Part shown: one piece after another, positions 270 to 59,300 of the stretch | Position numbering within the stretch: position 1 is the first letter of the stretch | Layout of the letters: each line of letters begins with the position of its first letter | Assembly (NCBI GenBank): GCA_943788985.1 | Contig: CALSSJ010000015.1 | Span: 1-64,000, forward strand | Length of the DNA: 64,000 nucleotides | Origin: an uncultured Lentisphaerales bacterium | GTDB lineage: Bacteria > Verrucomicrobiota > Lentisphaeria > JABSQK01 > UBA12247 | Reading direction: 5' to 3' | Made by a program: the position numbers and the translations under genes | The notes under the pieces: model-generated | Database searches by the model: none | What the model was told of the DNA's origin: nothing | Seen by the model: only the letters and a program-made list of their open reading frames with translations

Positions 270-1518
270 TGAGCACGACGACCATTTCTTCTCCGTTTGC
301 GGCAGCAGCCACGGCGCTCGCGCCGGTGCGTTGCACAAGCTGCAAAGTCAGGGGCGGGCTCGACTCGAGCAGCTGGGCTATCCTGGGCCGCGCGATGAGG
401 CCTGGCGGTTTACACCGCTGGCTCAAACTCTGACGACTTCCTGGCAGGTCGCGGGTGCGGACGCCGACTATCCAGCGGTGCCGGACTTTGCGCTGAATGG
501 GTACCGGGTGATCCTGCGCAATGGCCGCGTGGATCTGAAAGCCTCCAAGCTTCCCGAGGCTGCCTCGGTCTCTTCGTTCGCGACACTCGCTGATGCACCC
601 GTCGAGCTGAACCAGCTTTTTGCGGAGTCCGCACAATCCTTTGCAGCTCTAAATGCGTCCGCAGCAGTGGACGGTGTGGTGATTCGGGTGCCCGCGGGCG
701 TCACGATCGACGCGCCAATTCATCTCGTGCACCTGATGGCCGGCGAGGACGTGTCGGCGCATCCACGGCACTTGATCGTGGCTGAGCGTGGCTCGGCATG
801 CACGGTGGTGGAGTCCTGCTTTGGCGTTGGCACGTATGTAGCCAATCCGGCGACCGAGATTTTTGTGGCGGAGTCCGCAACGGTAAACCATGTGCGCCTG
901 CAACAGGACAGCATGACGGCCACGCACCTAGGGCTGATCGCAGCGCAGGTTGCGGGAGATGCCACGCTGCACAGCTATGCGGTTTCGCTGGGCGCGGCGC
1001 TATCGCGCACGGAGATCGATGTGGTGATGACCGCCCCAGGTGGGCATGTCGGGCTGCACGGTCTGTATTCGGCAAAGGATAAGCAGGTCGCAGACTTTCA
1101 TACGTCGCTCGATCACGCGCATCCAGATTGTACCAGCGAGCAGATGTACAAAGGCGTGTTGGATGATCGCGGGCGCGGCGTTTTTGCTGGCCGTATCATG
1201 GTACGCCAAGATGCGCAGCGTACGGCGGCGATGCAGACCAATCGCGCGCTACTGTTGTCTGATGACGCGAAGGTGAACACGATGCCGCAGCTCGAAATTT
1301 TTGCCGATGACGTGAGCTGCACGCATGGCGCGACGATTGGAGAACTCGACGAAAAGGCGCTGTTCTACATGCAGTCGCGTGGGATTGATGAAGCGAGCGC
1401 TCGCTCGATCCTGACCTATGCGTTTGCCGATGAAGCGATCATCGGCCTGCCGGTGGACGTAGTACGCCGCTATATCGAATCTCAGCTCACAGGCCACGAG
1501 GAAGGTATGACCGCATGA
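269..1518 (+). CDS. sufD: Fe-S cluster assembly protein SufD (frameshift near 320)
   Basis: EAWRFT, MYKGVLDDRGRGVFAG, PQLEIFADDVSCTHGATIG, LFYMQSRGI. ATG at 269 overlaps the sufC stop; N-terminus [10 protein letters not shown] is in another frame. Confidence 0.93.
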
Positions 1519-2764
1519 ATGCCCCGGTACCGGCCACTGCTGTTTGGGACACTGCCCGCATTCAGCAGGATTTTCCGATCCTGTCGCGCGAAGTGCATGG
1601 CAAGCCGCTGGTCTATCTGGACAGCGCGCGGCTACAACCCAGCGCCCAGTATCGGTAGTCGAGGCTGTACGTAAGTTTGACCTGACGCACAACGCGAATG
1701 TGCACCGCGGCGTACACCTGCTGAGTCAAGAGGCGACCCAGGCCTACGAGGGCGCGCGCGAGAAGGTGCGGCGTTTTCTGAACGCCGCGTCTGTCCGCGA
1801 GATTCTGTTTGTGCGGGGCACGACTGAGGCGATCAATCTGGTCTCAAATTCCTTCGGCACGAGCAAAATTGGTGCTGGCGACGAGATCGTGGTCTCCTCG
1901 CTGGAGCACCACTCGAACATTGTGCCGTGGCAAATGTTAGCCGAACGCACCGGTGCCGTCTTGCGGGTGATCCCAATGTCTGACAGCGGCGATCTGGATC
2001 AGGAGGCGTATCGCGAACTGTTGAACGCGCGCACCAGGCTGGTGGCACTCACCCATATTTCGAATGCCCTGGGTACGGTGAACCCGGTGCGCGAGATGAT
2101 CGCCGCCGCGCATGAACACGAGATTCCGGTGTTGGTCGATGGCGCGCAGGCAGTGGCTCACACGGCAGTAGATGTGCGAGAACTGGACTGTGATTTCTAT
2201 GCGTTCTCTGGGCATAAGCTCTATGGGCCGACGGGAATTGGCGTCCTGTATGGCCGCGAAGCGCTGCTCGAGGCGATGCCGCCGTGGCAGGGCGGAGGCG
2301 ACATGATCGCGTCTGTTTCGTTCAGCGGCACCACCTACAACGAGCTGCCTTATAAGTTTGAGGCGGGCACGCCCAATATTAGCGGAGCCGTTGGGCTCGG
2401 TGCGGCCGTAGACTACGTCGAAGCGCTGGGCCTGGAGGCGATCGCCGCCCACGAGGCGGACTTGCTGGACTACTTGGTCGCGCAGCTGTCGAAGATCGAT
2501 TGCGTGCGGCTGATCGGGGAACCGGCGGTGCGTGGTGGCGCGGTTTCCTTCTTGATTGGGGATGTGCACCCACACGACATTGGTACGATCCTCGATTGTG
2601 AAGGCATTGCGATACGCGCGGGCCATCACTGCGCGCAACCGATCATGGAGCGCCTTGGCATTCCCGCCACTGCGCGCGCCTCGGTAGGTGTCTATAATAC
2701 CAAAGCTGATATCGACAGCTTAGTCGCCCCCCTCCCACAGATTGCAGAGATGTTTGCCCGATGA
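1515..2764 (+). CDS. sufS: Cysteine desulfurase SufS (frameshift near 1628)
   Basis: DFPILSREVHGKPLVYLDSA then ATTQRP in the next frame; SGHKLYGPTG PLP site; RAGHHCAQP. Confidence 0.95.
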
Positions 2765-4527: not shown

Positions 4528-7500
4528 ATGTTGATGCGAACTGCGCGCCCTCTGATCTTCCTGCTTTTTCTAACGTCCTCTGCCATCGGCGAGGTCGCCG
4601 TGCTACCGCTGCGTGCCCCAACCGGGAACCTCACGTTTCCGGTGGCTGCGGACTCCGCAATCCAGATTACGCTGTCGGCGGCAGGATGAGCGGGAGCAGT
4701 GGCGCGCGCGGCTGGACGCAGAGCGGGGGATTCAACTCTGGCAGCGAGACGCGGAGGACGAGCGCCTGCGCAAGTACACGGGCCCAGCCACGCAAGTTGC
4801 GGACTCCGCAACGCCTGGCACTGCCGAGACGATGATGGCCAAGCTGCGGCCCCATGAGTGGACGATTTATCTGGGGGAAGGCGAGGTGCTGCGTGTGCCA
4901 GCTGCGTTCGCGCCCGCTAGCGTGGAAGTGGAGGCTGCAGGGATCACCACGACTGCTTTTCGATTTCAGAAGGTTGCGCCGTTTGTGCGGTTAGATGGCT
5001 TCATGGGGGCGGAGGGTGAGGGAGTTCAGCCGCTGGCAGACTGGGAAATCCTGTCCGGTGACTGGGGCAGTGCGCTCGGTCATGGATGACGCGCTGGAGC
5101 AGCGCACCAGTAAGAACCTGCAGAAGAAGCCGCTGGATGAGGAGCGCAGCCCAAACTTCTACAGCCTGCTCGGCAAGGCACCGGCGGAAGGGATCGCGGA
5201 GATTGCGACCGGATATCCGTTTGCAGACAACTACGAGGCCGCGGTGTCTATTTTTAACCGCGCCCGGTGCTGCTGGGCTGACCTTTCTGCACAGCACGGA
5301 TGATCGTCTTTACCGGTTTGAGCTGCGCATTCCAGAGCGAAACGGGGAGAACTCCCGGGCGGTGCTATCGCGTGAAGGGGCGGGGGATCGTGAATTTCTG
5401 CAGGGCGCTGAATTCCAATGCCAGACGGGGCAGTGGATCCGCCTGCGCGTGGCCGCCGGGAGTGGACGCTTGCGGTGTTATGTAGATCACACCTGTGTGA
5501 TCGATGTGAACGAAGCCTTGCCGCCGGGCGGGAAGGCCGGGCTGTTTGTGCGCGATGGCGCATTTCGGTTTGATGACTTTCGCCTGGCTAGCCTGGAGGA
5601 GTTGTGGCTAGACTCGCATGCGCGACTTCGCTATCATGCGCTTGAACTGGAGGAGTTGAAGCCATTGAAGCTGACGCGAGCGCCTGACGGTGTGGCGATC
5701 GAATCCCGTGGCGGTGGGTCCTGGGTGGTGGGCTCCGAGGACGATGCTGCGCATCCGTTTGCGGCTACCTTCGAGGTCGGGGCCGAGGATTGTGATGTGG
5801 GCATTCTTCACGGCTGTCGCGCCAGTAATCGGGCGCACTCGCGGTTTCGTGTGGTCCGAGAGGGAACGCAGGAAACCTACTTTTTGGAGCGCGTGATTGG
5901 CCCGATGGTCAGGGTGGTCGCAGGTTGGGAACGGGCGAGAACCGCCAGTGACACGCTGCGATTGTGGGCCGAGCCGTACGCGGATCATGTCCGCTTCTAC
6001 GCAAACGATGAGCTGGTTCTGGTGCATGAGGGCACTGAGAATTCTGGTGCGTCCGGGCTGTATGTGCGGAGCTCGCAACCGGTCTCGGTGCTGGAGATTT
6101 CGTATCGCTTGCAGCCGACGAAGCAGTGGCGGAATAAGTACGAGAAGAATCGGGTGTTTGAAAAAGATCCGTATATGCGCCACTGGTCGAGCCCGGAGGG
6201 GGAATGGTCCCACTTCGAGTCGCAGACCTGGCACAAGAGTGATTTCTTGGGGCGGCTTACGGTGCACGTGCCAATCGTGGCCGCTGGTACGCTGCATTTG
6301 GGCGTGGGGGAGGAGTCTGATGAGGCCGAGCTCCAGTTTAGGGCCAGTCAGACTTTGGTGAGCCTTGCCGTGTCGGAGGCGGATGAGCCTTTGTTTCAGC
6401 AGGCACTGCCGCAAGGCGCCAAGCGTTTGTCGGTGGATGTCGACGGCTTTTTTCTCGAAGTGCGCGCGGACGATGCAGTGGTGCACCGGCACCAGCTGTC
6501 TCAGCCGTTGCGTGGGCGGCGGCTGCGGATCGACGGGTATTCTAACCTTACGCAGCTCGCCGTGGATCGCTACGGTGTGCAGGATACGGTGTTCAACAAG
6601 GCGCCGACCGACTGGCTGATCAATGGTGGCAAATGGCAGATCATCAATCGATTTCAATGCGACCCACGCTGGTCGCATATGAACGGTCACAACCTGACTG
6701 GCCTGGCGGCGATCTGGTCCAAGTATCGGTTCAGCGGGGATTTTTGTGTCGAAGTGTATGCCGGGATGCGGCACGGCTACTACGAGCGTTGCGGCGACCT
6801 GAACGTGACGATGCATGGCAGCCGCAATAGCCCAAGCATGGGCTACACCGCCACCTGCGGCGAGTGGGACCCGGAACACACGCAGCTGTGGTCCCGGCTC
6901 TACCGAGCCGGGGAGCAGCTCGATGAGAGCGACACCTATGCGGTGCCGCGCAGGCGCGATGGAAATGTGCGCAAGGCGCGGCACGAGTTGGAGAAGACCG
7001 GTCGCGATGTGCACGGTGCCTGGTACTACCTCAAGATGCGCCGCGTAAACGGGACCCTGACGTACTCGTTCGACAACGAGCAGCTGCTGGAGGCGCAGGA
7101 CGACGAGCCCTTGGAAGATGGGGCATTTGGGTTCTGGACCTTTATGAACTCGGTGATGGTCTCGCGGATCAATGTGGCTGCGGAAGGCATGACACCGCAT
7201 CGCATTGGCTTTCGGCGCATTCCGGCGCACGAGCTTGAGGATGTGCAGCCGGTCGAGCCAGCGGAGGTTTCGCTGACTGGCGTGGAACGGCTGGTGGCAC
7301 TGGTGGAGGACGACTGGGCGTCGACCGATGATGTGGCGCGGGCGCGTGTGGCCTGGGCAGGCAGACTCAACTCGCTGCATCCTCCGGCAGCAACCGTGAC
7401 GAACGTGCTTGGGAGTGGGGAATTCTCGCTGGATTATCTGGGAGACTCTGTGGCCGTAGCGGACGTTGTCGGCTTTCTGTTTACCGCGTCACGAAGCGAT

Positions 7501-10164
7501 GACGCACTTTTTAACTTCCACTTTGACCTGGGCGAAGGCAAGCGTACCGATCGCTACGTACAGCGCCTATGTGGCGCGGAGATTGCCGATTCACGGCTGA
7601 AGCTGCTGGGACATACAGAGGTGGGGCTAAGAGAGGAGGTGGACGTGACGGTCTGGCTGCCCAGCTCCGGGACCACACCTGAGACGCGCATCACAAACAT
7701 CCAGTTTGGCAATCGTGAGCCTGGGCTGATTCTCAGTGGGCTGAAAGGCAATAGGCCTGGCGCTAGCTACACCATCGCGGGATTTACCCCGATTCTCACA
7801 GCGCCGCCCCGGCTTGTCCAAGAGTGGTTCGATGTGGGCGAGATTAGCGGCGTGGTGACCTCGAAGCCCGAGAGCACGCTTACCACAGCTCACGAGGGGC
7901 TTGAGCAAGCGAGCGATCACCTCGCCACGATCAGTCAGCCTGGCCTGAATCGGTTTTGGGTGCGGGTGGTGGGCCCGGGCGGGCACATGACGCGCCAGAT
8001 CGCCTGGCTGGAGGAGAAGGCTGGCATTTCTGTGTTCTGGGATCCGGAGGTGTCTGACGCATTCCTGATCGAAGGGGAGTCCCGGGTTCAGGCGCGGGCG
8101 AAGCTCGTAGCTAAGGTGGCGGGCAAGAAAGTAGAGCTGGAACCCCTGGGCCCGATGCAGTGGCGGGGGCGGCTGGACGATGAGCATTTTGAGCCCGGTG
8201 GTCTCCCCGTGAAGCTGTCGTGGCAAGATGGGAGTTATGCAGATGTGTTGTCGTGGCAGCGCCGGCCCAATCTGCGCGGGCCCGTTCTTCAATCACTGGA
8301 CGGCCTGACGAAGCATCTGGTAAACTTCGACGCCATGGGGCAAGAGCGGGTGGCCTACACAGCGATTGCGCGCAAAGCCCCGCGCGGGGTTGCGGACTCC
8401 GCACATTTGAGCGTGTGCAACGGGGGCAGGTTGCAGCGGCTACGCGCCCAGCTTGCTACGCAAAAATTGAATTTGGCGAGTCACCCGATTCTTCAGTTTC
8501 GGTATCGGGCTGATCCCACGGCAAGCGTATCGCTGCGCGCTGGCAAGCGCGAGAAAATACAGTTGTCAGAGCCGGTCGGGGCGACGGTGCCGTTCAGTCA
8601 TCAGTTGCTGGGGGACCGTGAGTGGCATACTTGGACGGGAATCGTGGCGCAGACCCCGACTGCCGTGCCTTACTCTAGCAATTTTTATTCCGCTACCAGC
8701 GTTGGATTCGGCTCGTACCACAAGCTTGATCAGACTGGGCCCTGGTCGACATTGGACCTAGATGATCTCGTCTTCGGGCCGGCCGTCAGCGACGCGCTCA
8801 ATTTTACGCCGCGGTACTTTGATTACGATGGTGTCGAGACCGTGCAGATCTGCGTCTGGCCGGGGCTGGAGTCGATTGGGCAGTTGACGACTGAGCAACT
8901 GACTGGGCTGCAGTGGGAGACTGTGATAAACGATGAACCGCATGATCGTGCCTTGGTAGATCTAGCCGACGGCGTGTACCAACTCTATCTGCGAGCGATC
9001 GACACCGGCGGCCGGCAGTCTCAGATCACCTGTGTGCCTTTTCTGGTCGACCGGACAGCGCCGACGGCGACGGTGAGTCGGGAAACCCCGGATGATCCGC
9101 TCTTTAATGGCAAGGTTCTGACCATCACCTGGGATATCGGGACTGGAGCGCCAGTGGACATCGCTAAGCTGGAACTGCTGATCGGCACTTGGAAAGTTGC
9201 CCTCTCGAAGCACACGGCCAAGCTGGAGATTACAGGGACCGAGAACCGTCTGACTGTGGATTGGATCCGGTTATTGCGGCATAGAATTGATGCGGGAAAA
9301 TTTCCGGAGACCTTGAAATTTGTCGGGATGCAGGACGGGGCTGGGAACAGGATAGAGGATCTGGAGGTGGTGTTGAGCAAGCCCGCGCAGGACGAGATGC
9401 CGCCCACTTGGCTGACTCACACGTTCAGTGACGACGTCTTTCGCCTTCCCTGGCCGCAGGCGTTTTCAGAGGTTTACCCGTTTCGGAACGAGAAGAACAG
9501 CGCGGAAATCAAGACCATCCACATCCGCCGGATGGAACCCAGCTACCGGCAAGTGGCTACTGGCGAAGGAAACAAGATGTCGCTGGTTTCGCGCACGTTC
9601 CCCGAGAAGTCACAGTATGTTTCGTTTTGGTGGCGAGTGCTGGACGGGGACGATGCTCCGACGTTGGACGTGGAGATCAGTGCTGGCAGCGGCAAGGAGA
9701 ATCTGCAGGTCTGGCCCGTTGCCGGAGACCACGCGGAGCACATCTCGGTCTCCACTCGCCCGGTGCTAGGTGGTAAAGAAGGCTGGCGCCTGGTGACAAT
9801 TGATGTATCCAGCGTCATCCCAAAGGCCAAACGCATCCGCCAGATCAGCTTTCGAACGCCGGAATTCAAGAAGAAGCAGGTGCTCGAAGTGCGGTCGCTC
9901 TACGTGCATTCTGGGTGGAATGAGAAGTCCGAGCTTACGGTCGATGGCTTTGACCAGTCTGGCATCGAGCATGTGCTCTGGAGGCTGTATGACGCCGACG
10001 GCACGATCATTGACCGGGGCAAGAAAACCGAACATACGTTTAAGCTGGCCGAGTTGTGCCAGAGTGCTGAGCCTGGGCAATGGCTGGACGTGCAGTTTGT
10101 CGACTTCGCTGGGAACAAGTCTGCAGTGGTGAGCGTGCCCGCTATCCTTGCGGCGCAGGACTGA
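4528..10164 (+). CDS. Very large (about 1880 aa) secreted multi-domain beta-sandwich protein; frameshifts in the first 750 bp
   Basis: Signal-like MLMRTARPLIFLLFLTSSAIG; DUF1080/ConA-like motifs (GQWIRLRV, GKAGL..FDDF, WYYLKMRR..GAFGFW); Ig-like AIDTGG and VDFAGN motifs. Confidence 0.7.
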
Positions 10165-10932: not shown

Positions 10933-12603
10933 ATGGATACCCCAGCTGAGTCTCTCGACTTCATCCGAACCATCGTTCACAACGACCTGGCGACCGGGAA
11001 GCACGAGTCGATTCAAACGCGCTTTCCGCCGGAGCCAAACGGCTACCTGCATATTGGTCACGCGAAGGCGATCTGCCTGAGTTTTGGTCTGGCCGAGGAA
11101 ACCGGCGGCGCCTGCAATTTGCGCTTTGACGACACGAACCCCACTCGCGAAGACACCATCTTTGTGGAAGCAATCCGAGCGGACATTCTTTGGCTTGGCT
11201 TCAACTGGGATTCGGAGCATTTTACCTCGGACTATTTCGAGCAGCTCCATGCTTGGGCGATTCAGCTGGTCGAGGCCGGGAAGGCCTATGTGTGCGATCT
11301 GTCGCCCGACGAAGCGCGTACCTATCGGGGAACGCTTACGGAACCGGGCAAACCGAGCCCGTGCCGAGACCGCGCCATCGCCGAGAACGTCGACTTGTTT
11401 CAGCGCATGACCGCTGGTGAGTTCGAGGAGGGCACGCATGTGTTACGCGCGAAGATTGATGTCGCCAGCCCCAATCTGAACCTGCGAGATCCGGTGATGT
11501 ACCGCATTCTCAAGGAGCATCATCACCGCACGGGGGACCGTTGGTCGGTCTATCCGATGTATGACTGGGCTCACGGGCAATCAGATTCGATCGAGCGCAT
11601 TACCCATTCGCTTTGTTCGCTGGAGTTCGAGAATCATCGGCCGCTGTACGACTGGTACGTGCGTGAGCTTGGCATCTATGCGCCGCGCCAGATCGAGTTC
11701 GCCCGCTTCAATCTTAGCCACACGGTGATGAGCAAGCGCAAGATTCAGCAGCTTGTCGAAGAAGGGCATGTCGCTGGCTGGGATGATCCGCGCCTGCCCA
11801 CGCTCTCGGGTTTTCGTCGGCGTGGTTGTCCGCCAGCAGCCATTCGCCAGTTCTGTCAGGAAATCGGCATGGCCAAGCGCGTGAATATGATCGAGATCGC
11901 GAAGCTTGAGGGTTGTATCCGGAGCGAACTGAATACTACGGCCCGGCGTTATCTGGGCGTTTTGCGGCCGTTGAAGGTGGTGATCACCAACTATCCGGAG
12001 GATCAGGTCGAGTACCACACGGGGAATAACAATCCCAATGACGAGTCGGCCGGCACGCGCCAGATTCCTTTTTCGCGCGAGTTCTATATCGAGCAAGAAG
12101 ATTTCATGGCGGAGGCGCCGCGTAAGTACTTTCGCCTGACTCCCGGGCGGGAAGTGCGCCTGCGCTACGCTTACTTCGTGACGTGCACGCATTTCGATAG
12201 CGATGACGATGGCAACGTGACCACTGTATATTGTACCTACGATCCAGAGACCAAGGGCGGCAACGCACCAGACGGTCGCAAGGTCAAAGGCACGATTCAC
12301 TGGGTTTCCGCCGCGCATGCGATTTCCGCAGAAGTTCGGCTCTATGACACCTTGTTCACCGTGGAGAACCCCGAGAAACAGGATGAGCCTTTCCTCAACT
12401 TGTTGAATCCGGAATCGCTCACGGTCCTCAGCGATTGCAAGGTTGAACCCGCGGCAACTGAGATCTCAATCTCGCAGGCAGTGCAGTTCGAGCGGCAGGG
12501 CTTTTTCGCACCGGATCTAGAGTCTACGCCCGAGGCGCTGATTTTTAATCGTACAGTCTCTCTGCGTGATGCTTGGGCGAAGATCGCGAAGAAGAATCGG
12601 TAA
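10933..12603 (+). CDS. glnS: Glutamine--tRNA ligase
   Basis: [38 protein letters not shown]. Confidence 0.97.
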
Positions 12604-14717: not shown

Positions 14718-15221
14718 AGTCGTGCGGCCTACCGTTGTGTTAAGGAAGGCAAGCCGCAGGCGCTTGCGGACCTCGCAGACGATCTTGCGAAGTTCGCAAC
14801 AGCGAAACTCGCCGATGATCGAAACAACTACCTCGGCTGGCTTTTTATCGAGACCTCACTATTTATCAATCCGCGCGGTCGACCAGCGGTGCTCACGCGC
14901 GGCAAGTTGCTCACGAAGATGCCGCTCTCAGGACCAGCAGGTTCGCCGCCTGACGGCGACCTACGCAAACGTCGTGATTGCCCCTGCCTGGGCGTCGAAC
15001 ACGACGATGCGGTGATGGTCCTAGGCAGTGTAAATGAAGCGGATGTGAAGCTGGTCGAGCAGTTGAAGCGTCTAGCGACTGCTCAGGCGACCACTGGGAA
15101 AGCGTCTGCTCGCAGCTTAACACCTCTAGGGGGACCGAAGCCAGATCTTTCCGGCCTCTCTTCACTGACCAGTTGTGTCTGGAACGGCGCTCTCTCGAAG
15201 CTCATGAAGGGCAAGAAGTGA
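14718..15221 (+). pseudogene. Degenerate hypothetical ORF without a clear start
   Basis: Open frame from 14718 (ALADLADDLAKFATAKL...GVEHDDAVMVLG) with no ATG/RBS at its 5' end; carries two palindrome copies. Confidence 0.25.
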
Positions 15222-17480: not shown

Positions 17481-17490
17481 GGTGGTACTC

Positions 17491-18888: not shown

Positions 18889-18890
18889 GA

Positions 18891-46991: not shown

Positions 46992-47147
46992 TGGCAGGGG
47001 AGCGGACAAGTTGGACCCGAGAAGGCTGCTACAATGTTGTAGTTTTCCCCCGCCGGGGAATACAGAATTGTAACACGTTTTGGTAGCTTTTGCGGAGTTC
47101 GCAGTTGAACGGTGCTATGCACCAGACCAAACACAGGAGTCTCAGAA

Positions 47148-48247: not shown

Positions 48248-49705
48248 CTAGCTGGTAGCCCAGCTCCGGCTGCGCGAGACTGCTTCTTGCCAGGTGGCGA
48301 ACAGCGCATCTACATCTACATCGCTGGTGGCGGGTTCAAAGACGCGCTCCACGCGGTGTGCCTGGTAGAAGGACTCGCGTGACCAGACGTTCGCCGCGAT
48401 TCCCGCAGCTGCCGCTGCCCCTAGCGCTGTGCTCTCAAGAATCCGCGGGCGTTCCACCGGAATCCCCAACAGGTCCGCCTGGAACTGCATCAAAAAGTCA
48501 TTCGCCGTGGCTCCGCCATCGACCCGCATGCGCGCCGGTCTGGGGCCCATGGCATCGACCAATGCCCGCGTCTGGTAGGCCATCGATTCCAGGACCGCCC
48601 GCACCACATGGTCGGCCTTGCTGCCCTGCGTCATCCCGATTAGAGTCCCGCGGGCATGAGGATCCCACCACGGTGCGCCAAGTCCAACCAATGCTGGGAC
48701 AAAGTAGACGCCGCCATTGTCCGGCACCCGGCGTGCCATCGTTGCGGACTCCGCAACATCGGCCAGAATGCCCAGGCCGTCGCGCAGCCATTGCATGGCC
48801 GCCCCGCCAATAAACGCGGCACCCTCCAAGGCATAGGTAGAGCGATCGTTCATGTGCCAGGCAACCGTGCGCAACAGGTCGCTCTCTTTGGCCAGTTCAT
48901 GGCCCGTGCTGCGCATCATAAACAGTCCAGTGCCATAGGTGTTTTTTACCACATTCGGGTCCCAGCCGCCGTGCGAGAACAGGGCAGCCTGCTGGTCGCC
49001 CAGCACCGCGTGAATCGGCACCACGGCGCCGACCTCCTCCGCACGCGTGTCACCGAAATGTGCATCGCTGGAAAGAATGGTTGGGAGCATAGCCTGCGAG
49101 ATACCAAACAGATGCAGCAGTTCGGCATCCCAGCTGCCGGTATCAAGGCGGTAAAGTAGGGTGCGGCAGGCATTGGACGGATCGGTGGCGAAGTCGCCGG
49201 TCAATCGTTCAACCAGCCAAGTGTCGACTGTGCCGGCCCGAAGACAGCCCGCATCTGCAGCCGACCGCGCGCCTGGCACGTGGTCTAAAATCCAGCGCAG
49301 CTTTGTCGCCGAGAAGTACGGATCAACGACCAGCCCGGTGCGCTCGCGAATCAGGGCTTCGTACCCGGCTTTGCGGAGTTTGCCGCAGTAGTCCGCCGTC
49401 CGTCGACACTGCCAAACGATCGCGTTATGGAGGGGCTCACCGGTATCTGCGTCCCAGACCGCTACGGTCTCTCGCTGGTTCGCGATGCCGATAGCGGCGG
49501 GTGCTTCGGGCAATTTCTCAATGACCTGACGCAGGCCGCTGCGCACGATCCGCAGGATATCCCGCGGGTCCTGCTCTACCCAACCGGGCTGTGGGTGGTA
49601 CTGCGGCACTTCCTCGTAGTGCTGCGCCAGTATGTGGAGCTCCTGATCGAATCCAATCACCCGACACCCGGTTGTGCCTGCGTCGATCGCGATGACCAAA
49701 GCCAT
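48248..49705 (-). CDS. glpK: Glycerol kinase
   Basis: IDAGTTG, NQRET, IVWQCRRT, YFSATK, GDQQAALF, KNTYGTG, VDGGA. Confidence 0.95.
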   Translation of the reverse strand: MALVIAIDAGTTGCRVIGFDQELHILAQHYEEVPQYHPQPGWVEQDPRDILRIVRSGLRQVIEKLPEAPAAIGIANQRETVAVWDADTGEPLHNAIVWQCRRTADYCGKLRKAGYEALIRERTGLVVDPYFSATKLRWILDHVPGARSAADAGCLRAGTVDTWLVERLTGDFATDPSNACRTLLYRLDTGSWDAELLHLFGISQAMLPTILSSDAHFGDTRAEEVGAVVPIHAVLGDQQAALFSHGGWDPNVVKNTYGTGLFMMRSTGHELAKESDLLRTVAWHMNDRSTYALEGAAFIGGAAMQWLRDGLGILADVAESATMARRVPDNGGVYFVPALVGLGAPWWDPHARGTLIGMTQGSKADHVVRAVLESMAYQTRALVDAMGPRPARMRVDGGATANDFLMQFQADLLGIPVERPRILESTALGAAAAAGIAANVWSRESFYQAHRVERVFEPATSDVDVDALFATWQEAVSRSRSWATS

Positions 49706-51279: not shown

Positions 51280-51323
51280 CGCACGACTCACGCCCCGACC
51301 CCACCCTACACGAGGAGCTCACC

Positions 51324-52580
51324 ATGCTCCGCAGACTCTATCTTCTGGCGCTACTGATTGCGGAGTTCGCAACGGCAGCGCCTGTGACCTTACCAGAGTT
51401 GCTCAGTGAGGCCTTCGAGCGGAACCCGGATGTACGCGCCGCGCAACTCGCCTGGCGTGCCAGCATCGATGCCATCCCAGAAGCCACGTCGTTGCCAGAT
51501 CCGATGATTCGCTTCGACTACTTCGGCGAAAATGTCGAGACCCGGGTGGGACCGCAGAAAAGCCGCGTGGGCGTCAGTCAGGGCTTTCCGTTTCCGGGCA
51601 CGCTGCGACAGGCAGGCGAAGTGGCAAGCCGGGAGTCGCGGCTTCAGCAGCTAGGCTACGAGATTGCCGTGCGTGATCTGATCGTGGACCTCAAAGTCAG
51701 CTATTTCGAGCTTTGGTACCTGCGCGGGGCCGCGACAATCACGCAGCAGAACCAAGACCTGCTGCAGCATAGCTTGCAGCTCGCCACCGCCCGCTACGCG
51801 ACGGACAAGGCGAAGCTGCTAGATGTGCTGAAAGCGCAGAGCCAGCTGGCCCAGCTAAGCTATGATCTCATTGTCGTGCGTGAATTACAGGAGATCGAGC
51901 AGACCAAGATCAACGCACTGCAGGATTACCCCTCGGATCGGGAGGTGGGAGATCTTGTCTTCCCGGAATTGCATAGTCCGCAATTCGACGCGGCGGCCGT
52001 AGAAAAGGCGGCCCTCGCAGGCCGTCAGGAGATTCTCATGGCCCAGGCCAAGGTTGGCAAACTCGAGGCGGCGGTGGATCTCGCTTCCCTGAAGAATCGC
52101 CCGACATTCGGCGTCAACGCGATGTATATCGACACCGGCGAGGCGAGTTTCGGTAACTTCCCGGACAGCGGCAAGGATCCGTGGCTGGTCGGGGTGACGA
52201 TGAGTTTGCCGATCTGGCACGATCGCAATGAGCGGCGCGTGGCCAAGGCGGAACTCGTTGCGGAGTCCGCAACACTGAGGCAGAACGGCCTGGAGAACAA
52301 GACGCGGGTTGCGGTGAAGTCGGCCTTGTTTCGCCTCGAGAATGCGCGGCGCCTGACGCAGCTCTACCAAGGCACCCTCATCCCCCAGGCTAAAGCGGCG
52401 ATGGAGGTTGCAGAGCAGTGGCACGATGGTGACACCCCGGACTTGAGCGGCTTTCTCGAGACGCAGTCCGTGTGGCTTAACTTCAATCTGGCCTATCTCC
52501 GGGCCCTCGCCGACTATCACCAGTATCTCGCCCGTCTGGAGGGCCTGGTGGGTGGCAAACTTCCGGAGGCGTCGCCATGA
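51324..52580 (+). CDS. TolC-family outer membrane efflux protein 1
   Basis: RNP.V.AA, LPDP, SQ.FPFPG, LPIW, LIPQA; GAGGAG RBS. Confidence 0.9.
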   Translation: MLRRLYLLALLIAEFATAAPVTLPELLSEAFERNPDVRAAQLAWRASIDAIPEATSLPDPMIRFDYFGENVETRVGPQKSRVGVSQGFPFPGTLRQAGEVASRESRLQQLGYEIAVRDLIVDLKVSYFELWYLRGAATITQQNQDLLQHSLQLATARYATDKAKLLDVLKAQSQLAQLSYDLIVVRELQEIEQTKINALQDYPSDREVGDLVFPELHSPQFDAAAVEKAALAGRQEILMAQAKVGKLEAAVDLASLKNRPTFGVNAMYIDTGEASFGNFPDSGKDPWLVGVTMSLPIWHDRNERRVAKAELVAESATLRQNGLENKTRVAVKSALFRLENARRLTQLYQGTLIPQAKAAMEVAEQWHDGDTPDLSGFLETQSVWLNFNLAYLRALADYHQYLARLEGLVGGKLPEASP

Positions 52581-54028
52581 AATGGAGTCTTCTATTCCTG
52601 TTGTTAGCAGGCTGCAGCAGCACTCCCTACGAGGCGCTGGTAGGCGAATACGAAAGTGGCACCGAAACCACATATTTGCGGATTTCGCGTGCGGAGTCTG
52701 CAACCGCCCCGGACCCCCTGGCGGATCTTACTGCGGAGACCGCAGCGGCCCAAGTGCGCTGGGAGCAGGCTCTGGCCGTGGCACCCACCACCGGCCTTGC
52801 GGAGTCCGCGACGCCCCCGCCTGTGGAATCGCTAGCTACGTCGCTGGAACTCCCCGGGCTGGTCGCCCTGGTACTGGCGCGCAACCCGGGCATCGACGCA
52901 GCCGCGCAGGCGGTGAAGGCCACCCGCGAGAAATATCCGCAGGCGGTGGCTCTTGACAGCGTGCTGCAGCAGTACAATGCCTTCACCAAACAACTGGACA
53001 CTCGGATCGGCCCTACGTCTCACAAGGGCATGAACGCCATGAGCTTGCCGTTTCCGGATGCCCTGGCGCTCAAGGGCAAGCTGGTGAGCGAGGAGATCGA
53101 TATCGCAGCCAGTCGGCTGGAGATTGCCAAGCGCGATGCCATCACGGCCATGCACGAGGCCTATTTCGACCTCTTGTTTGTGGACCAGGGCATCGCCATC
53201 AATCGGGAGCAGCAGGCGCTGCTGGAGCAGATGATTGCGGTGGCTCAGACCAAGGTGCGCACGGATCGCAGCAAGTATCAGGGCCTGATCATGGCCCAGG
53301 TGGAGTTGTCCAAGCTCGCCAATGCCATCATCACGCTTGAGGAACAGCGCGAGACGGTGATCGCCCGCATCAACACAATGCTGAATCTCGCGCCGGATGG
53401 GGCCCTGGCAGCGCCGAGCCCAGCACCAGTCACCGCGGAGACGCAGAGTCTGGACAGCTGGTACGAAAAGGCGCTTGCCGGGCGTCAGGAACTGTTGACG
53501 CAGCGCCTGCGCATCGTGCGTACGAAGACGATGATCGAGCTGGCCTCGCGCATTGCCAACCCCGACGTGAGTCTGGGAACAAGCTATTTCGAAGATCGCA
53601 TGCGCCTGAGCAGCGGCACAGGCGAGGCCCAGCCCGCCTTCACACCCCAGCGCGAGCTGAATCATCGCCAGACGCCGCAATTTGGCGAGCGCAACGCCTA
53701 CATCCGTGAGGTCACAGTGCGCGTGACTGGCATGGAGAGCATGCTCACGGGGATGGAAGACCGGACCCGCCTGGCTGTAAAAAAAGCGCACTTTGCACTT
53801 GAGCGGGCTGAGCGTAGTATCGGCCTTTATCGCGACTCACTGCTACCGCAGGCACAACAGTCGCTGGAAGCCGCCGCCGCGGGCTATCGCGCGGGCAGCG
53901 TCGACTTCCTGACCTTTCTCGATACCGAGCGCACTCTGCTTCGGTTTCGCCTGGAAGAGAAACGCGCCGCGCGTGATCAGGGCGTGGCTCTGGCACATTT
54001 GAATCAACTCAGTGGGAAAATACGATGA
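52577..54028 (+). CDS. TolC-family outer membrane efflux lipoprotein 2
   Basis: Lipobox LAGC, RNP.I.AA, PFP..L.LKG, LLPQA, Y.AG..DFL. Confidence 0.9.
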   Translation: MKWSLLFLLLAGCSSTPYEALVGEYESGTETTYLRISRAESATAPDPLADLTAETAAAQVRWEQALAVAPTTGLAESATPPPVESLATSLELPGLVALVLARNPGIDAAAQAVKATREKYPQAVALDSVLQQYNAFTKQLDTRIGPTSHKGMNAMSLPFPDALALKGKLVSEEIDIAASRLEIAKRDAITAMHEAYFDLLFVDQGIAINREQQALLEQMIAVAQTKVRTDRSKYQGLIMAQVELSKLANAIITLEEQRETVIARINTMLNLAPDGALAAPSPAPVTAETQSLDSWYEKALAGRQELLTQRLRIVRTKTMIELASRIANPDVSLGTSYFEDRMRLSSGTGEAQPAFTPQRELNHRQTPQFGERNAYIREVTVRVTGMESMLTGMEDRTRLAVKKAHFALERAERSIGLYRDSLLPQAQQSLEAAAAGYRAGSVDFLTFLDTERTLLRFRLEEKRAARDQGVALAHLNQLSGKIR

Positions 54029-55947
54029 AGAAGCGCACGCTTTTGATTGTAATCGTGGCCGTCTTGCTAGCGTTCGGGTTCGGCATGATGCTCGGCGGTT
54101 CCGGTACCAGGTACGAGCACGCTGTCGCTTCTGCCCCCAGCCGTAAAGCGGGAGCCAGTGTCTGGACCTGTTCGATGCACCCGCAGATCAAGCAGCCAGA
54201 GCCGGGCGATTGCCCGCTTTGCGGCATGGATCTCATCCCGCTTAAGGCAGGCGTGGACGACAACGGACCGCGCGAACTGACCCTCTCTGAGGGGGCCCGC
54301 AGTCTGGCCGACATTCAAGTGCAGCCGGTCAGGCGACAGGCCGTGGTGCGCGAGGTGCGCATGGTCGGCACGATCGACTACGACGAGCGGCGCTTATCCA
54401 CGATCACCGCCTGGGTAGGCGGGCGCCTGGATCGAATCTTTGTCGATTACACCGGTGTGACAGTCGCCAAGGGCGATCACATGGTCTGGATGTACAGCCC
54501 GGAGATTTTGGGGGCGCAGGAGGAGTTGCTGCAGGCCAGCATCGCGGTGCGCAAGATGGCGGATAATCCACTGGCTCTTATTCGCAACAATGCCCAGGCG
54601 ACCCTCGAAGCCTCGCGCGACAAGCTGCGCCTTTGGGGGCTGTCCCTCGAGCAGATCGCGGCTATCGAAGAAAGCGGCAAAGCCTCGGACCACATTCAGA
54701 TCAACGCGCCGATTGGTGGCGTGGTGATCCATAAGAATGCCACTGAAGGCATGTACGTGAAGACCGGCACCCCAATTTATCAGATCGTTGATTTAAGCCA
54801 GGTTTGGGCCCAGCTGGACGCGTATGAGTCGGATCTGGCTTGGCTGCGCTATGGTCAGGAGGTGAGCTTTGAGTCCGAAGCCTACCCGGGCGAGGTGTTT
54901 AACGGGCGTGTTTCCTTCATTGACCCAGTTCTCAGCAGGAGCACACGCACAGTGAAAGTGCGCGTGAATGTGCCAAACGAGGATGGCAGGCTCAAGCCAG
55001 GTATGTTTGTGCGGGCGATTCTGCACTCTGCGGTGGCAGCTGGTGGCAAGGTGATTGATGCGGACCTCGCAGGCAAGTGGATCAGCCCGATGCACCCGGA
55101 GATCGTGCGCGACGAGCCCGGCCCGTGCGACATCTGTGGCATGGCCTTGGTCAGGTCCGAGGACTTGGGCTTTGTCAGCGCGGCCGACTTCAGCACCGCG
55201 GTGCCGCTCGTGGTTCCGGCTTCGGCGCCGTTGCTCACCGGCAAGCGCGCGGTGGTCTACGTACAGAATCCAGCCGATCCGGGCCGCTTCACGGGCCGCA
55301 CCGTCACACTGGGGCCGCGGGTGGGCGGCTTTTATGTGCTCAAGTCTGGCCTAGAGGAAGGCGAACTGGTGGTGACTCACGGCAACTTCAAGATCGACAG
55401 CGCCCTGCAGATTATGGCCAAGCCAAGTATGATGAGCCCCGCAGAAGAGCCCGCGGAAGCCGAAACAGAAATTCGCTACGAGGCGCCTAAAGCGTTTCTG
55501 GCACAGCTACAGCCGCTGTTCACGCACTACCTTGCGATTCAGCAAGCCTTGGCTGGTGACAACCTGGCGGCCACCCGAAGCGGTGCGGGAGCCTTCTCCG
55601 AGGCGCTGCAGGCTATCGACATGAGCCTGGTCACGGGCGCTGGTCACATGGCTTGGATGGGCTTATCCGCCAAGTTTGCGAAGTCCGCAAAGGAGATCGC
55701 GAGCCGCGCGGACATCGACGAGGCACGCGCGCAGTTCGAGCCCCTGAGTACGAGCATGATCGCCTTGGCGCAGCAATTCGGCACTGGTATGGCGGATCCC
55801 GTGAGCGTCGCCCACTGCCCGATGGCCCTGGACAACAGCGGTGCCAACTGGTTGCAGCTGGGTGCGGAGATCGCAAATCCCTACTTCGGAGCCTCGATGC
55901 TCCGCTGTGGTGAGGTGACCGCAACCATTGACGGGCGCCAGAAATGA
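54025..55947 (+). CDS. cusB: CusB-like RND adaptor with heavy-metal-binding motifs and a DUF3347-like tail
   Basis: WTCSMHPQI..PG.CP.CGM, SPMHPEI..CDICGM, LKPGMF, HCPMA..W.Q...NPYFG..MLRCG. Confidence 0.88.
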   Translation: MKKRTLLIVIVAVLLAFGFGMMLGGSGTRYEHAVASAPSRKAGASVWTCSMHPQIKQPEPGDCPLCGMDLIPLKAGVDDNGPRELTLSEGARSLADIQVQPVRRQAVVREVRMVGTIDYDERRLSTITAWVGGRLDRIFVDYTGVTVAKGDHMVWMYSPEILGAQEELLQASIAVRKMADNPLALIRNNAQATLEASRDKLRLWGLSLEQIAAIEESGKASDHIQINAPIGGVVIHKNATEGMYVKTGTPIYQIVDLSQVWAQLDAYESDLAWLRYGQEVSFESEAYPGEVFNGRVSFIDPVLSRSTRTVKVRVNVPNEDGRLKPGMFVRAILHSAVAAGGKVIDADLAGKWISPMHPEIVRDEPGPCDICGMALVRSEDLGFVSAADFSTAVPLVVPASAPLLTGKRAVVYVQNPADPGRFTGRTVTLGPRVGGFYVLKSGLEEGELVVTHGNFKIDSALQIMAKPSMMSPAEEPAEAETEIRYEAPKAFLAQLQPLFTHYLAIQQALAGDNLAATRSGAGAFSEALQAIDMSLVTGAGHMAWMGLSAKFAKSAKEIASRADIDEARAQFEPLSTSMIALAQQFGTGMADPVSVAHCPMALDNSGANWLQLGAEIANPYFGASMLRCGEVTATIDGRQK

Positions 55948-56239: not shown

Positions 56240-56307
56240 GCTTTCATCGCTGCTCGTGACCTCCCTGAGGGTTGTTGCTCATGGCCTGACGCGTTTAAGT
56301 AGTCGTC

Positions 56308-59300
56308 ATGAAGCCTGAGCCGAAATCTTTTCTCGATAGGACCATTCTATTCTGCCTGCAGAATAAGCTGGTGGTGCTGCTGGCTGTCGTGTTTGCGCTG
56401 CTCTGGGGGGCCATCGTAGCACCATTCGACTGGGAGATTGAGCGCTTGCCGCGTGATCCCGTGCCAGTCGATGCGATCCCGGACATCGGTGAGAATCAGC
56501 AGATCGTGTTCACGCGCTGGATGGGGCGATCACCGCAGGATGTGGAAGACCAGATCAGCTATCCAATGACCGTGGCAATGCTCGGCATCCCGGGCGTGAA
56601 GACAGTGCGCAGCTACTCGATGTTCGGCTTCAGCACCATCTACATTATTTTCAAGGAAGACGTCGAATTCTACTGGTCACGATCACGGGTCCTAGAGAAG
56701 CTCAATAGCCTTCCAGTAGGTTCGCTGCCGACGGGGGTGCAGCCAGCGCTGGGCCCGGATGCCACGGCTTTGGGGCAGGTCTACTGGTACACGCTCGAAG
56801 GCCGTGACCAGGCAGGTAATCCGGCTGGCGGCTGGGATCTGCACGAGCTGCGCAGCATTCAGGATTGGCAGGTGCGTTATGCGTTGCTTTCGGCAGATGG
56901 CATCGCCGAAGTCGCCAGCATCGGCGGCTATGTGCAGGAATATCAGGTAGATGTGGACCCAGATGCGATGCGCGCCTATGGCGTGACGCTGGACCAGGTG
57001 ATCGCGGCGGTGAAGATGTCGAATCTGGATGTTGGGGCGCGGACCATCGAGATCAACAAGGTGGAGTATGTGATCCGCGGCCTCGGCTTTATCAAAGACG
57101 TGGAGGACATCGAGCTGTCGGTCGTGGGCGTGAGCGATAATGTGCCGATCTATGTGAGGAACGTGGCCAAGGTAAGTCTCGGGCCGGCCCTACGCCGGGG
57201 GGCCTTGGATAAAGGCGGCGCCGAAGCGGTCGGCGGTGTGGCGGTGGTGCGCTATGGCGAGAATCCGCTGGCCGCGATCAAAAACCTGAAAGCGCAAATT
57301 GCGCAGATCGCACCGGGCCTGCCCGAAAAGGTGGTGATCGACTTTAACGCGGTGGATGCGGAAACAGTTGCGAAGTTCGCAATCAGCCAGGGGTTTGCGG
57401 CCTACAATGAGGCGGTGCTGAATCAGGAGGCCTGGCTGACCTGGACACGAGAGACCGCGCCAGAGTTACGCCCGGATTGGCTGACGCTGAGCAAGGTGAC
57501 GGTGGTGCCATTCTACGATCGCACGGGGCTCATCTACGAGACGCTCGGCACGCTGAATATCGCGCTGACCGAAGAAATGCTGGTGACCATTATAGTCATC
57601 ATCATGATGCTGCTGCATTTGCGGAGTTCGCTGGTCATCACGGCAACGCTGCCGTTGGCAGTACTGATTTGCTTCATCGCCATGAAGATCTTTCATGTGG
57701 ACGCCAACATCGTGGCGCTCTCGGGCATCGCCATCGCTATCGGCACCATTGTGGACATGGGCGTCATCGTGTGCGAGAACGTCCTCAAGCATCTTGAGAC
57801 AGCCGAGCCCGAGGAAGACCGGCTGACGATCGTTTACAATGCCACCACCGAGGTGGCCAGTGCGGTGCTCACGGCCATTCTCACCACCATCATCAGCTTC
57901 TTGCCGGTGTTTACGATGATTGGCGCGGAGGGCAAGCTGTTCAAGCCGCTGGCTTTTACCAAGACGTTTGCGCTGTTCGCAAGTGTGATCGTGGCGCTCA
58001 CCGTCGTGCCAGCCATCGCTCACTCGCTGTTCACCTTTAGCGCCCCCGGCAAGGCGTGGCGCGGGCGTCTACTAGCGAAGATTCCGCCGTGGGTTTTGCG
58101 GAGTTCGCGCTGGATTCTAAATGGCGTGGTGGCGCTGCTGGTCGGGGTGATTCTGACCCGACATTGGCTTCCCTTGGGGCCGCAGGCAGGCATCTTCGCT
58201 AACGGGGTGGTAGTGCTGCTGCCGATCTTCGCACTGCTGGCCTTCCTTATCGCCTTTATTAAGATCTATCGCCCGCTCTTGCGCTGGTTTCTCGACCACA
58301 AGCTGATCTTTCTGAGCATTCCAACAGTGATCGTGGTGCTTGGTCTGGCCATCTGGCTCGGCGCTGGTGCGGTGCTGGGCTGGATGCCGGACGGCGTGAA
58401 GAAGAGCAGCACGTACAGCTCGCTGGTTCATACCTTTCCGGGATTGGGCAAGGAGTTTATGCCGGACCTTGACGAGGGTTCGTATCTGTACATGCCGACG
58501 ACCATGCCACACGCGTCGATCGGCGAAGCGCTGGATGTGCTGCAGAAACAGGACATGGGCTTCAGTGCGATCCCCGAGATTGAGTCGGCGGTCGGCAAGC
58601 TCGGCCGGGCCGAAACCCCGCTGGACCCGGCACCCGTATCGATGATCGAGACCGTCATCAACTACCTGAGCGAATACGTAACGGACGATGATGGCCACGA
58701 CGTGCGCTTTCGCTACGATCCCGAGGCCACAGACCTGATGCGCAATGTCGCCGGCGAGCCACTACCGGCTGCCGATGGTGAGCCCTACACGGTGCAAGGT
58801 AGCTACAGCTGGGATGAGCAGGGCGCATTGATTCCAGACGAGGATGGCATGCCGTTTCGACAGTGGCGCCAGCCGCTGGACTTAGCGCTGAATGACGACC
58901 GCGAGGCCTGGCAGGGCATTCGTGACCCCGCTGATATCTGGGACGAGATCTTGGTGGCTGGCGAGATCCTAGGCACGACCTCGGCTCCCAAGCTGCAGCC
59001 GATCGCCGCGCGCATCGTGATGCTACAAAGCGGTATGCGAGCCCCAATGGGCCTGAAAGTGAAGGGCCCAGACTTGGAGACGATCGATCGCTTTGGTCTC
59101 GACGTGGAGCGCTTGCTCAAGGAGGTGCCGAGCGTCAAAGCCAGCGCTGTGATTGCCGACCGCATCGTCGGAAAGCCCTATCTGGAGATCGATATCGACC
59201 GCGAGGCCATCGCCCGCTACGGCGTGCACATTCGCAAGGTCCAGCAGGTGATCGAGGTGGCGATTGGCGGGATGCCCTTGACCACGACAGTGGAAGGGCG

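Follow-up and report, generated by a model that had tools for sequence, protein, structure and literature searches.

A palindromic DNA word spread through the genes of Lentisphaeria

What keeps one thirteen-letter palindrome recurring through unrelated genes of a bacterium? The question is raised by a stretch of 64,000 nucleotides (positions 1 to 64,000 of contig CALSSJ010000015.1, assembly GCA_943788985.1; here called the window) from an uncultured Lentisphaerales bacterium, in which the word TGCGRANTYCGCA had been pointed out by a sequence-only reading made without database searches. The consensus is written TGCGRASTYCGCA and, in its extended form, (G)TTGCGRA-S-TYCGCAA(C), and the word is present in roughly every third gene of the source bacterium. 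We hold with high confidence that it is a watermark at the level of the DNA, built by substitution and shared by a whole clade, of the same kind as the cyanobacterial palindrome HIP1 and the uptake signal sequence (USS) of Pasteurellaceae.

A pattern count gives 22 exact copies in the window, about 1 per 2.9 kb (~344 per Mb, or 3.4 per 10 kb), at the very starts that the sequence-only reading had listed. One hundred dinucleotide-preserving shuffles contain a mean of 0.03 copies and at most 1, so that 22 was never reached and the excess is ~700-fold; the large excess over base composition that had been claimed is borne out. Markov models of orders 1-5 expect 0.04-0.16 copies, even though the copies themselves were part of the window sequence used for training. 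When codons are shuffled synonymously within genes and the proteins stay unchanged (1000 shuffles), the mean is 0.26 and the maximum 3, against 21 seen within open reading frames (ORFs), a figure in which one copy is scored twice where two ORFs overlap. The enrichment thus stays under both the codon-preserving shuffles and the high-order Markov models that the earlier reading had put forward as checks. Graded by mismatches (0/1/2/3) the window holds 22/20/19/116 copies against 0.03/1.0/12.6/95.5 in order-3 Markov simulations, a one-mismatch halo enriched roughly 20-fold. All 13 of the one-mismatch copies already noted are in the list of 20, the others starting at 6065, 27613, 32340, 44030, 52732, 55059 and 59432. 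Sub-words of the motif also top the over-represented 8-, 9- and 10-mers of the window in an unbiased k-mer scan. Among the exact copies 12 have G at the centre, 9 have C and 1 has A, hence S in 21 of 22 as had been said, and to the perfect 17-mers GTTGCGGASTCCGCAAC known at 4796 and 48741 a third is added, starting at 52257. Spacing along the 64 kb is compatible with a uniform spread (largest gap 12,053 bp, P=0.22).

Is the word a matter of the DNA or of the encoded proteins? Twenty of the 22 exact copies are inside ORFs, in 14 unrelated ones on both strands, and in this the earlier description of unrelated genes on either strand stands; its differing frames need qualifying, frame use being uneven (16/3/1, the copy at 45631 counted in a TilS-like gene that an upstream-extended TPR ORF overlaps). 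In the main frame, with 16 of the 20, the word is read xxT GCG RAS TYC GCA and becomes A-[EDKN]-[SF]-A; the second frame (3/20) gives L-R-x-P-[QH] and the third (1/20) C-E-L-R. Such unevenness would fit accumulation wherever coding tolerates the word. The 49 ORFs of the window contain 25 A[EDKN][SF]A tetrapeptides, about six-fold the 3.9 expected from 2000 residue shuffles of the proteins (sd 2.0, max 12), and 16 of the 25 use the exact motif codons GCG-RAS-TYC-GCA. Among those that the word encodes, the first alanine is always GCG and the last always GCA, which makes up only 18% of alanine codons. LR[TSI]P[QH] is found 3 times, against 0.07 in residue-shuffled proteins, and from the two peptide excesses it follows that the DNA word has shaped the proteins. 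All 16 main-frame copies have S at the centre, despite G/C-ending codons being only about 54-72% for these amino acids, and the centre therefore belongs to the signal. The shuffles, the three frames and the intergenic copies support the DNA-level signal that had been proposed, and the accompanying argument against a protein-level cause holds with them, strengthened by the synonymous-shuffle excess and the 16 of 25 exact codons.

The unit is the whole palindrome and not the half-site. The number of partner-half matches per TGCGRA half-site is bimodal, 6/6 in 44, 5 in 20 and 4 in 10, followed by a background hump, and TGCGRA-N(x)-TYCGCA occurs 22 times at x=1 and 0-1 times at every other spacer from 0 to 12. 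Half-sites in direct arrangement number 1, everted ones 0. On this bimodality, and on enrichment confined to the inverted arrangement with spacer 1, the half-site was rejected as the unit. At positions 5/9 the sole tolerated change is the transition G>A / C>T, with G-C 8, G-T 7, A-T 4 and A-C 3 in the window and G-C 40, G-T 13, A-T 1 and A-C 17 in relatives; the two halves vary independently, with no base-pair covariation. Flanking positions -1/+1 (T/A) and -2/+2 (G/C) are enriched and uncorrelated with each other, and no sequence is shared beyond -2/+2 among the copies of the window and the relatives' flanks. One-mismatch variants cluster at positions 1/13 and 6/8, and GCG/CGC (positions 2-4 and 10-12) is almost invariant, taking just 4 of the window's 20 variants and 7 of the relatives' 68. 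As the palindrome is grown outward, the extension probabilities are 0.15 (5 to 7), 0.43, 0.96, 0.84, 0.38 and 0.375 (15 to 17); they are well above background to 15-17 bp, and specificity therefore spans 13-17 bp. Inner 5-7-mer cores such as GANTC have no enrichment of their own. A fixed one-base spacer, an inverted arrangement only and independent halves probably point to a symmetric dimeric reader on duplex DNA, and the dimeric protein suggested by the sequence-only reading would suit this geometry, lack of covariation included.

Copies arise in place. All five of the sites that can be aligned, in three motif-bearing proteins compared with their homologues, were built by substitution with no indel. 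Two are in the SufD-like ORF 163-1518(+), at residues 154 and 236: the exact copy TGCGGAGTCCGCA at 621..633, read LFAESAQS, and the one-mismatch copy GGCGGAGTCCGCA at 867..879, read VAESAT. The oxoprolinase ORF 31260-34499(-) has two more, at residue 395 (TGCGAACTTCGCA, 33306..33318, read AKFA where homologues have xKFx) and at residue 185 (TGCGGAATTCGCA, 33934..33946, read LRIPQ, the sole exact copy with an A centre). The fifth is at residue 419 of the TolC-like ORF 51006-52580(+), where the exact copy at 52259..52271, part of the perfect 17-mer from 52257, is read LVAESATL and homologues have HE[SA]A. The replacements are of xKFx by AKFA, of HE[SA]A by AESA and of [AG][EP]xA by AESA. Other sites examined are in hypervariable segments. 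The variable linker of the oxoprolinase holds exact copies at 32706..32718 (TGCGGAGTTCGCA, read FANSATP) and 32727..32739 (TGCGAAGTTCGCA, read RANFAA), and the signal-peptide end of the TolC-like protein holds one at 51359..51371 (TGCGGAGTTCGCA, read IAEFATA). The densest pile-up in the window, four one-mismatch copies within 134 bp (52677-52810), is in the unconstrained N-terminal linker of a second OEP lipoprotein (ORF 52577-54028(+)): TGCGGATTTCGCG at 52677..52689, TGCGGAGTCTGCA at 52690..52702 (RAESAT), TGCGGAGACCGCA at 52732..52744 (TAETAA) and TGCGGAGTCCGCG at 52798..52810 (LAESATP).

Are individual sites kept? TolC relatives at 73%, 58% and 57% identity have AEFA or ANFA, and AESA, at both motif columns, one of which is otherwise hypervariable, and the other 26 of 30 aligned homologues are without these peptides there; at the signal-peptide end a constraint from the signal-peptidase site may be at work too. 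Both sites are missing from the nearest SufD relative (61% identity), the peptides being present in some distant homologues. Two assemblies ~93% identical share 2 of 2 sites, which their closeness makes uninformative, and in cross-genome DNA alignments of relatives' loci (65-72% identity) the aligned segments happened to contain no motif site, so that they too were uninformative.

There is little doubt that the word is clade-wide in Lentisphaeria and not peculiar to the source genome. The survey of related genomes that the sequence-only reading had suggested took the form of a scan of 185,579 species genomes with the 17-mer GTTGCGGASTCCGCAAC; it gave at least 104 loci, the window's own genome not being among the matches listed, and sets a lower bound on the taxonomic range. 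Of the 104 loci listed, 13 assemblies with the label Lentisphaeria, Lentisphaerae or Victivallales contribute 63, one Kiritimatiellota-labelled assembly 4, Verrucomicrobiota (MAG179)- and Planctomycetota-labelled assemblies 1 each, and other taxa 35, all but one of whose assemblies give a single locus; roughly 70 chance matches are expected in 596 Gb, by our own estimate. With seed copies excluded and only further copies in flanks of up to 10 kb counted, the listed Lentisphaeria, Victivallales and Kiritimatiellota loci have 71 further unique 13-mer copies in 760 kb, and none is found in the 463 kb of 28 long control loci, which represent 27 other assemblies. The relatives thus carry the word more sparsely, at about 0.9 copies per 10 kb against 3.4 per 10 kb in the window. 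One or more further copies are found in 9 of the 13 Lentisphaeria assemblies, the remaining 4 having been sampled over just 3.6-20 kb. Genomes from 36% to 70% GC spell the word identically, GC-rich relatives having mostly the canonical GASTC centre and the window and some others often having transition variants. Of 119 sites in the relatives, 98 fall within ORFs that had passed a filter for a coding-like pattern of GC, with frames 47/25/26; a cruder longest-ORF assignment of frame was confounded by antisense shadow ORFs.

Some of these loci deserve description. A Verrucomicrobiota-labelled contig of 36% GC (L076) has 4 copies in ~3 kb of an RND efflux operon (9069-12191) and 0 in its other 8.6 kb; three have the canonical TGCGGACTCCGCA core and one is an AACTC variant, and in the reliably called HlyD- and AcrB-type genes they are read in two frames as VADSAT, LADSAR and, twice, LRTPQ. 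The RND operon of the window (51-60 kb) is likewise rich in copies and near-copies. In the Kiritimatiellota-labelled L026 and L053, TGCGAACTCCGCA occurs six times and its reverse complement never; four L053 copies are in plus-strand ORFs, which points to a strand or coding asymmetry of this variant. Two Lentisphaeria assemblies share an intergenic repeat of ~60 nt, a hairpin then a T-run, with no Rfam match and 6 copies (L001:5015-5167, L023:1-120, L043:3021-3079, 11925-12071 and 19002-19064, L072:4221-4297). The palindrome follows at a fixed distance after 4 of the 6, often with a W centre, and in L072 it is the tip of a hairpin with a 13-bp stem.

What could read such a word, and to what end? 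It is probably read on duplex DNA by a symmetric, perhaps homodimeric, sequence-specific protein, each subunit of which would contact a single GTTGCGRA half-site, the triplet GCG being critical. The copies themselves come about through point substitutions at places where the gene product can bear the word; most become A-[EDKN]-[SF]-A, frequently in linkers or at residues of low conservation, and a bias on the DNA word itself keeps them at their density, strongly enough to dictate codon choice and inflate the tetrapeptide about six-fold. As to purpose, we tentatively favour a self-DNA tag in uptake and/or homologous recombination, though with less than even confidence. Word-bearing fragments would be preferentially taken up or recombined and the word would spread by molecular drive, modelled on the USS of Pasteurellaceae, the DNA uptake sequence (DUS) of Neisseria and HIP1 as now proposed. 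Uptake is suggested because the footprint matches that of USS and DUS in density, halo, codon and peptide effects, use of unconstrained positions and, in relatives, hairpin tips, and because the palindromic analogue HIP1 is reported to raise transformation efficiency and is proposed as an uptake sequence (PMC13756078 among the sources). The fullest version, an undescribed self-DNA recognition system of Lentisphaeria in which a dimeric receptor would steer transformation or recombination and which would have been conserved from 36% to 70% GC, is a doubtful step further.

Several points tell against a role in uptake. No reader protein, competence machinery or methylase was found in the window beyond one prepilin-type DUF1559 gene; reader, competence or methylase genes were not identified in the relatives' loci by a family scan that covered only 16 of 401 ORFs; and no candidate reader gene recurs beside the intergenic copies of the window or the 21 relatives' copies outside called ORFs. 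Natural transformation is, to our knowledge, unreported in Lentisphaeria. Retention of the TolC peptides would fit site-by-site selection, as reported for HIP1. Uptake sequences are absent from recent acquisitions, a signature not seen here, the copy-free stretch of the window not being foreign-looking. Known USS and DUS, as described in PMC1939737, are asymmetric, whereas the word here is palindromic.

The main rival, which we consider unlikely, is that the copies are sites of an abundant nucleoid- or chromosome-organising protein, kept for folding, segregation or condensation. Independent half-sites with a fixed spacer fit a dimeric DNA-binding protein, the spread along 64 kb is compatible with uniform, and the peptides are kept at both TolC motif columns in three relatives. 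For HIP1, too, conserved sites are reported, and from their conservation and periodicity Xu et al. inferred a nucleoid function (PMC5861425). However, the halo and the linker pile-up look like genome-wide drive and not like the placing of individual sites, and the nearest SufD relative is without both. Moreover, the known organisers (matS, the Noc- and SlmA-binding sites NBS and SBS, and parS) have tens of regional sites, not one per 3 kb.

Alternatively the excess may be a by-product of a methyltransferase acting inside the word, say on the core GANTC or on one of the cytosines in TCCGCA, together with mismatch or very-short-patch-type repair that converts near-matches, which we find improbable. 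Repair-type conversion of near-matches is said to have been proposed for HIP1 by Elhai. The canonical form of the word contains GANTC, as do 8 of the 22 window copies and the majority of those in GC-rich relatives; positions 5/9 vary only by G>A / C>T, as deamination of a modified cytosine would give; and HIP1 is linked to two methylases (PMC4390886). Yet a specificity of 13-17 bp with the inner 5- and 7-mers unenriched is unlike a 4-8-bp methylase site, and GANTC is missing from the other 14 window copies. With both transition variants frequent there is no sign of repair back to C:G, and no DNA methylase or Vsr gene is seen in the window.

Could the selected form be a hairpin in mRNA or single-stranded DNA, with stem GTTGCG(G)/(C)CGCAAC and a loop of 3-5 nt, serving a nuclease, a transposase-like protein or the replication machinery? 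As DNA the canonical 17-mer does fold, at -7.7 to -8.8 kcal/mol, into a stem of 7 bp closed by a 3-nt loop, the relatives' intergenic copies are at the tip of longer hairpins, and one-mismatch variants are commonest at the loop-proximal positions 6/8. A selected hairpin is very unlikely all the same, because compensatory change is lacking: positions 5/9 are A-C in 3 + 17 cases and A-T in 4 + 1 (window + relatives). In addition the flanks -1/+1 and -2/+2 are independent, the stem sequence itself is fixed, the weaker variants fold at only -3.7 kcal/mol and no Rfam family matches.

It is scarcely credible that a miniature mobile insertion of 12-15 bp left the copies as its footprints, or that they are what remains of elements of the REP (repetitive extragenic palindromic) or MITE (miniature inverted-repeat transposable element) type. 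Some are indeed in length-variable linkers (oxoprolinase residues 588-597 and the lipoprotein linker), and two relatives have the intergenic repeat family with the word attached; against this, the word is substituted at all five alignable sites, and with an indel at none of them an insertion origin was rejected, there being also no common flank past +/-2 bp and 20 of 22 copies intragenic and in frame. Finally, an origin in a protein-level motif, codon or dipeptide bias or assembly artefact can be practically dismissed, for although 16 of the 20 intragenic copies share one frame, the word also occurs in the other two and between genes, the alanine codons of the main frame are fixed as GCG and GCA, the identical word is in at least 13 independent assemblies, and the excess survives synonymous shuffles (only 0.26 copies), residue shuffles and Markov orders 1-5, on which grounds a codon or peptide explanation was rejected.

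The window itself is ordinary chromosome, with suf genes, a class-I Glu/Gln-tRNA synthetase, a TilS-like gene, oxaloacetate decarboxylase, oxoprolinase, an RND metal-efflux operon, a sugar ABC transporter, one prepilin-type DUF1559 gene and many family-less ORFs. It has no tRNAs and no Rfam match, and a tRNA was all that Rfam matched in nine loci of relatives. Close relatives of its proteins are scarce, the best non-self matches being 61-73% identical; one TolC match is from a Lentisphaerae metagenome-assembled genome (MAG), and two window genes are 65-73% identical in DNA to Lentisphaeria MAG loci.

The remaining copies may be followed along the window. ORF 4613-5089(+), of 158 residues and without a family match, has two exact ones: TGCGGACTCCGCA at 4647..4659, read in the second frame as WLRTPQ, and that at 4798..4810, within the perfect 17-mer from 4796, read QVADSATP. 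It is followed by ORF 5086-10164(+), whose 1692 residues match nothing in Pfam or NCBIfam and which holds a one-mismatch copy at 6065..6077 (TGCGGAGCTCGCA) and an exact one at 8391..8403 (TGCGGACTCCGCA, GVADSAHL). The class-I Glu/Gln-tRNA synthetase ORF 10867-12603(+) has the one-mismatch TGCGATTTCCGCA at 12318..12330. Between the convergent ORFs 13596-14555(+) and 15390-16079(-) is the exact intergenic copy TGCGAAGTTCGCA at 14786..14798, preceded by the one-mismatch TGCGGACCTCGCA at 14765..14777, which is also intergenic. The starts of this pair and of the pair at 32706 and 32727 in the oxoprolinase linker are exactly 21 bp apart, ~two helical turns, in numbers too small for testing.

From 14799 to 26838 there follow 12 kb with no exact copy. 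No Pfam, NCBIfam or PHROG family is found at 15.3-21.9 kb except in the COX15/CtaA-like ORF 19735-20478, and ORF 24481-26259 resembles hypothetical proteins of Lentisphaerota and Verrucomicrobiota in a look-alike search. A foreign island was considered for the 14.8-26.8 kb gap and rejected, there being no phage families bar one domain match and the gap having P=0.22.

Beyond this gap, the S41 peptidase ORF 26264-27454(-) carries the one-mismatch TGCGATCTCCGCA at 26271..26283 and the exact TGCGGAGTTCGCA at 26839..26851, read in the third frame as LCELRT. An intergenic one-mismatch copy, TGCGGTTTCCGCA, is at 27613..27625, and the TraB/GumN-family ORF 27673-28662(-) has the exact TGCGGAGTCCGCA at 28639..28651 (SADSATP). 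The oxoprolinase gene has a one-mismatch copy as well, TGCGAAGATCGCA at 32340..32352, and its frame changes near 31295 (31260-31340, minus strand), immediately past ...GASGVH. A database protein with full identity over the ORF (1189 aa) runs on in the other frame (THMTNTRM...). The 1-base indel may be a fault of assembly; alternatively the frameshift is real and costs the gene about 110 residues. Exact copies follow in the HEAT-repeat ORF 35051-35989(-), at 35583..35595 (TGCGGACTCCGCA, ILRSPH) and 35816..35828 (TGCGGAGTTCGCA, AANSAT), in the 2-hydroxyacid dehydrogenase ORF 36181-36987(-) at 36652..36664 (TGCGAACTCCGCA, VAEFAL) and in the OadA-like carboxylase ORF 37149-38810(-) at 37377..37389 (TGCGGACTTCGCA, PAKSATP); the neighbouring OadB ORF 38833-39963(-) has the one-mismatch TGCGGTTTCCGCA at 39205..39217.

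The DUF1559 gene of the window (40368-40970) begins with a prepilin-type N-terminus, FTLIELLVVIAII, whose DNA is 77-90% identical across five loci in four assemblies (L002:8288-8395, L021, L022, L051 and L077). A short element common to these five loci was considered as a carrier of the motif and rejected, since it is this DUF1559 prepilin N-terminus.

In the TPR ORF 42962-45931(-) there are one-mismatch copies at 44000..44012 (TGCAAACTCCGCA) and 44030..44042 (TGCGAAGTCAGCA), and in the TilS-like ORF 45580-46908(-) an exact one in the C-terminal part at 45631..45643 (TGCGAACTCCGCA, RRAEFAR), where the TPR ORF overlaps, and a one-mismatch one at 46683..46695 (TGCGGAGTTGGCA). In its longest form the TPR ORF shares 352 nt of this strand (45580-45931) with the TilS-like ORF, and a later start codon is probable for the TPR gene. 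The second exact intergenic copy, TGCGGAGTTCGCA at 47091..47103, is directly upstream of the glutamine-synthetase-like ORF 47112-48155(+), and the FGGY kinase ORF 48248-49705(-) has the exact copy at 48743..48755, within the perfect 17-mer from 48741, read DVAESATM. In the efflux operon, the CusB/HlyD-type ORF 54025-55947(+) has the exact TGCGAAGTCCGCA at 55677..55689 (FAKSAK) between one-mismatch copies at 55059..55071 (TGCGGACCTCGCA) and 55863..55875 (TGCGGAGATCGCA), and the RND transporter ORF 56308-60222(+) has the exact TGCGAAGTTCGCA at 57369..57381 (VAKFAI) and one-mismatch copies at 57620..57632 (TGCGGAGTTCGCT), 58097..58109 (TGCGGAGTTCGCG) and 59432..59444 (TGCGAGGTCCGCA).

Very few hyper-abundant intragenic DNA words are known, namely USS, DUS, HIP1 and Chi-type signals, and each has raised the question of how a genome marks itself. 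The present word is a further and very clean case, in a poorly studied clade. Its length and symmetry should make the reader easy to fish with an oligonucleotide, and the purpose of such watermarks becomes testable in a second, independent system. If it does serve self-DNA recognition, the principle of the uptake sequence would have been invented independently in the PVC (Planctomycetes, Verrucomicrobia, Chlamydiae) group, with a palindromic word like HIP1, and routine gene exchange would be implied in a clade with no known competence; on the uptake reading the word would also be a possible handle for genetic tools there. It might be of use as a binning or contamination marker for Lentisphaeria MAGs and could help to flag recently acquired DNA.

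How, then, does the word stand to known systems? The sequence-only reading had found it to match no known motif, and this is upheld against HIP1, USS/DUS, matS, SBS, NBS and parS; searches of the literature on the word itself, on Lentisphaerae and Victivallis, on oligomers in excess and on genomes yielded no earlier description, a prior mention elsewhere being possible. Several 12-16-bp palindromes are read by dimers, in the pairs matS/MatP, SBS/SlmA, NBS/Noc and parS/ParB and in the KorB operator; two of these, matS and the KorB operator, are likewise 13 bp long, their centre being free or S. The organiser sites matS, SBS, NBS and parS are few to tens and regional, in contrast to 22 evenly spread copies in 64 kb and to the presence of copies in each region sampled from the relatives. 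REP elements, bacterial interspersed mosaic elements (BIME) and MITEs share with the word a palindromic form and high copy number, as well as, in two relatives, its attachment to an intergenic repeat, but they are extragenic and longer and have shared flanks, whereas 20 of 22 copies here are intragenic with no common flank past 2 bp. Restriction and modification targets have 4-8 specified bases, against 13-17 bp here.

HIP1 and the present word are both palindromic, mostly intragenic, spread by substitution, over-represented hundreds-fold and without a settled function, and both are clade-wide with lineage-specific extensions and variants. At ~344 per Mb the word is within the HIP1 range of 300-2700 per Mb given in Table 2 of PMC4390886. 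HIP1, however, is GCGATCGC, an 8-bp word of cyanobacteria, and the word here is of unrelated sequence, 13-17 bp, odd in length with a degenerate centre and from another phylum; HIP1 is methylated and holds sites of co-occurring orphan methylases (GATC, CGATCG), and here no methylase site is constantly embedded, GANTC being in 8 of 22. With USS and DUS the word shares a density of about 1 per 1-3 kb and a location mostly in genes. Further shared traits are a graded mismatch halo, favoured frames, the use of poorly conserved residues and inflated encoded peptides (PMC2817400, PMC1939737) and a use in intergenic hairpins (PMC5217627), the relatives' word being at hairpin tips. The USS and DUS systems have natural competence, a pilin receptor and a bias in uptake that are either demonstrated or predicted. 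It is not a matS/SBS/NBS/parS-type site, because its copies are too many and too evenly spread, nor a REP/MITE repeat, because they are intragenic and have no shared flanks; it works like HIP1 and USS/DUS, yet is a member of neither.

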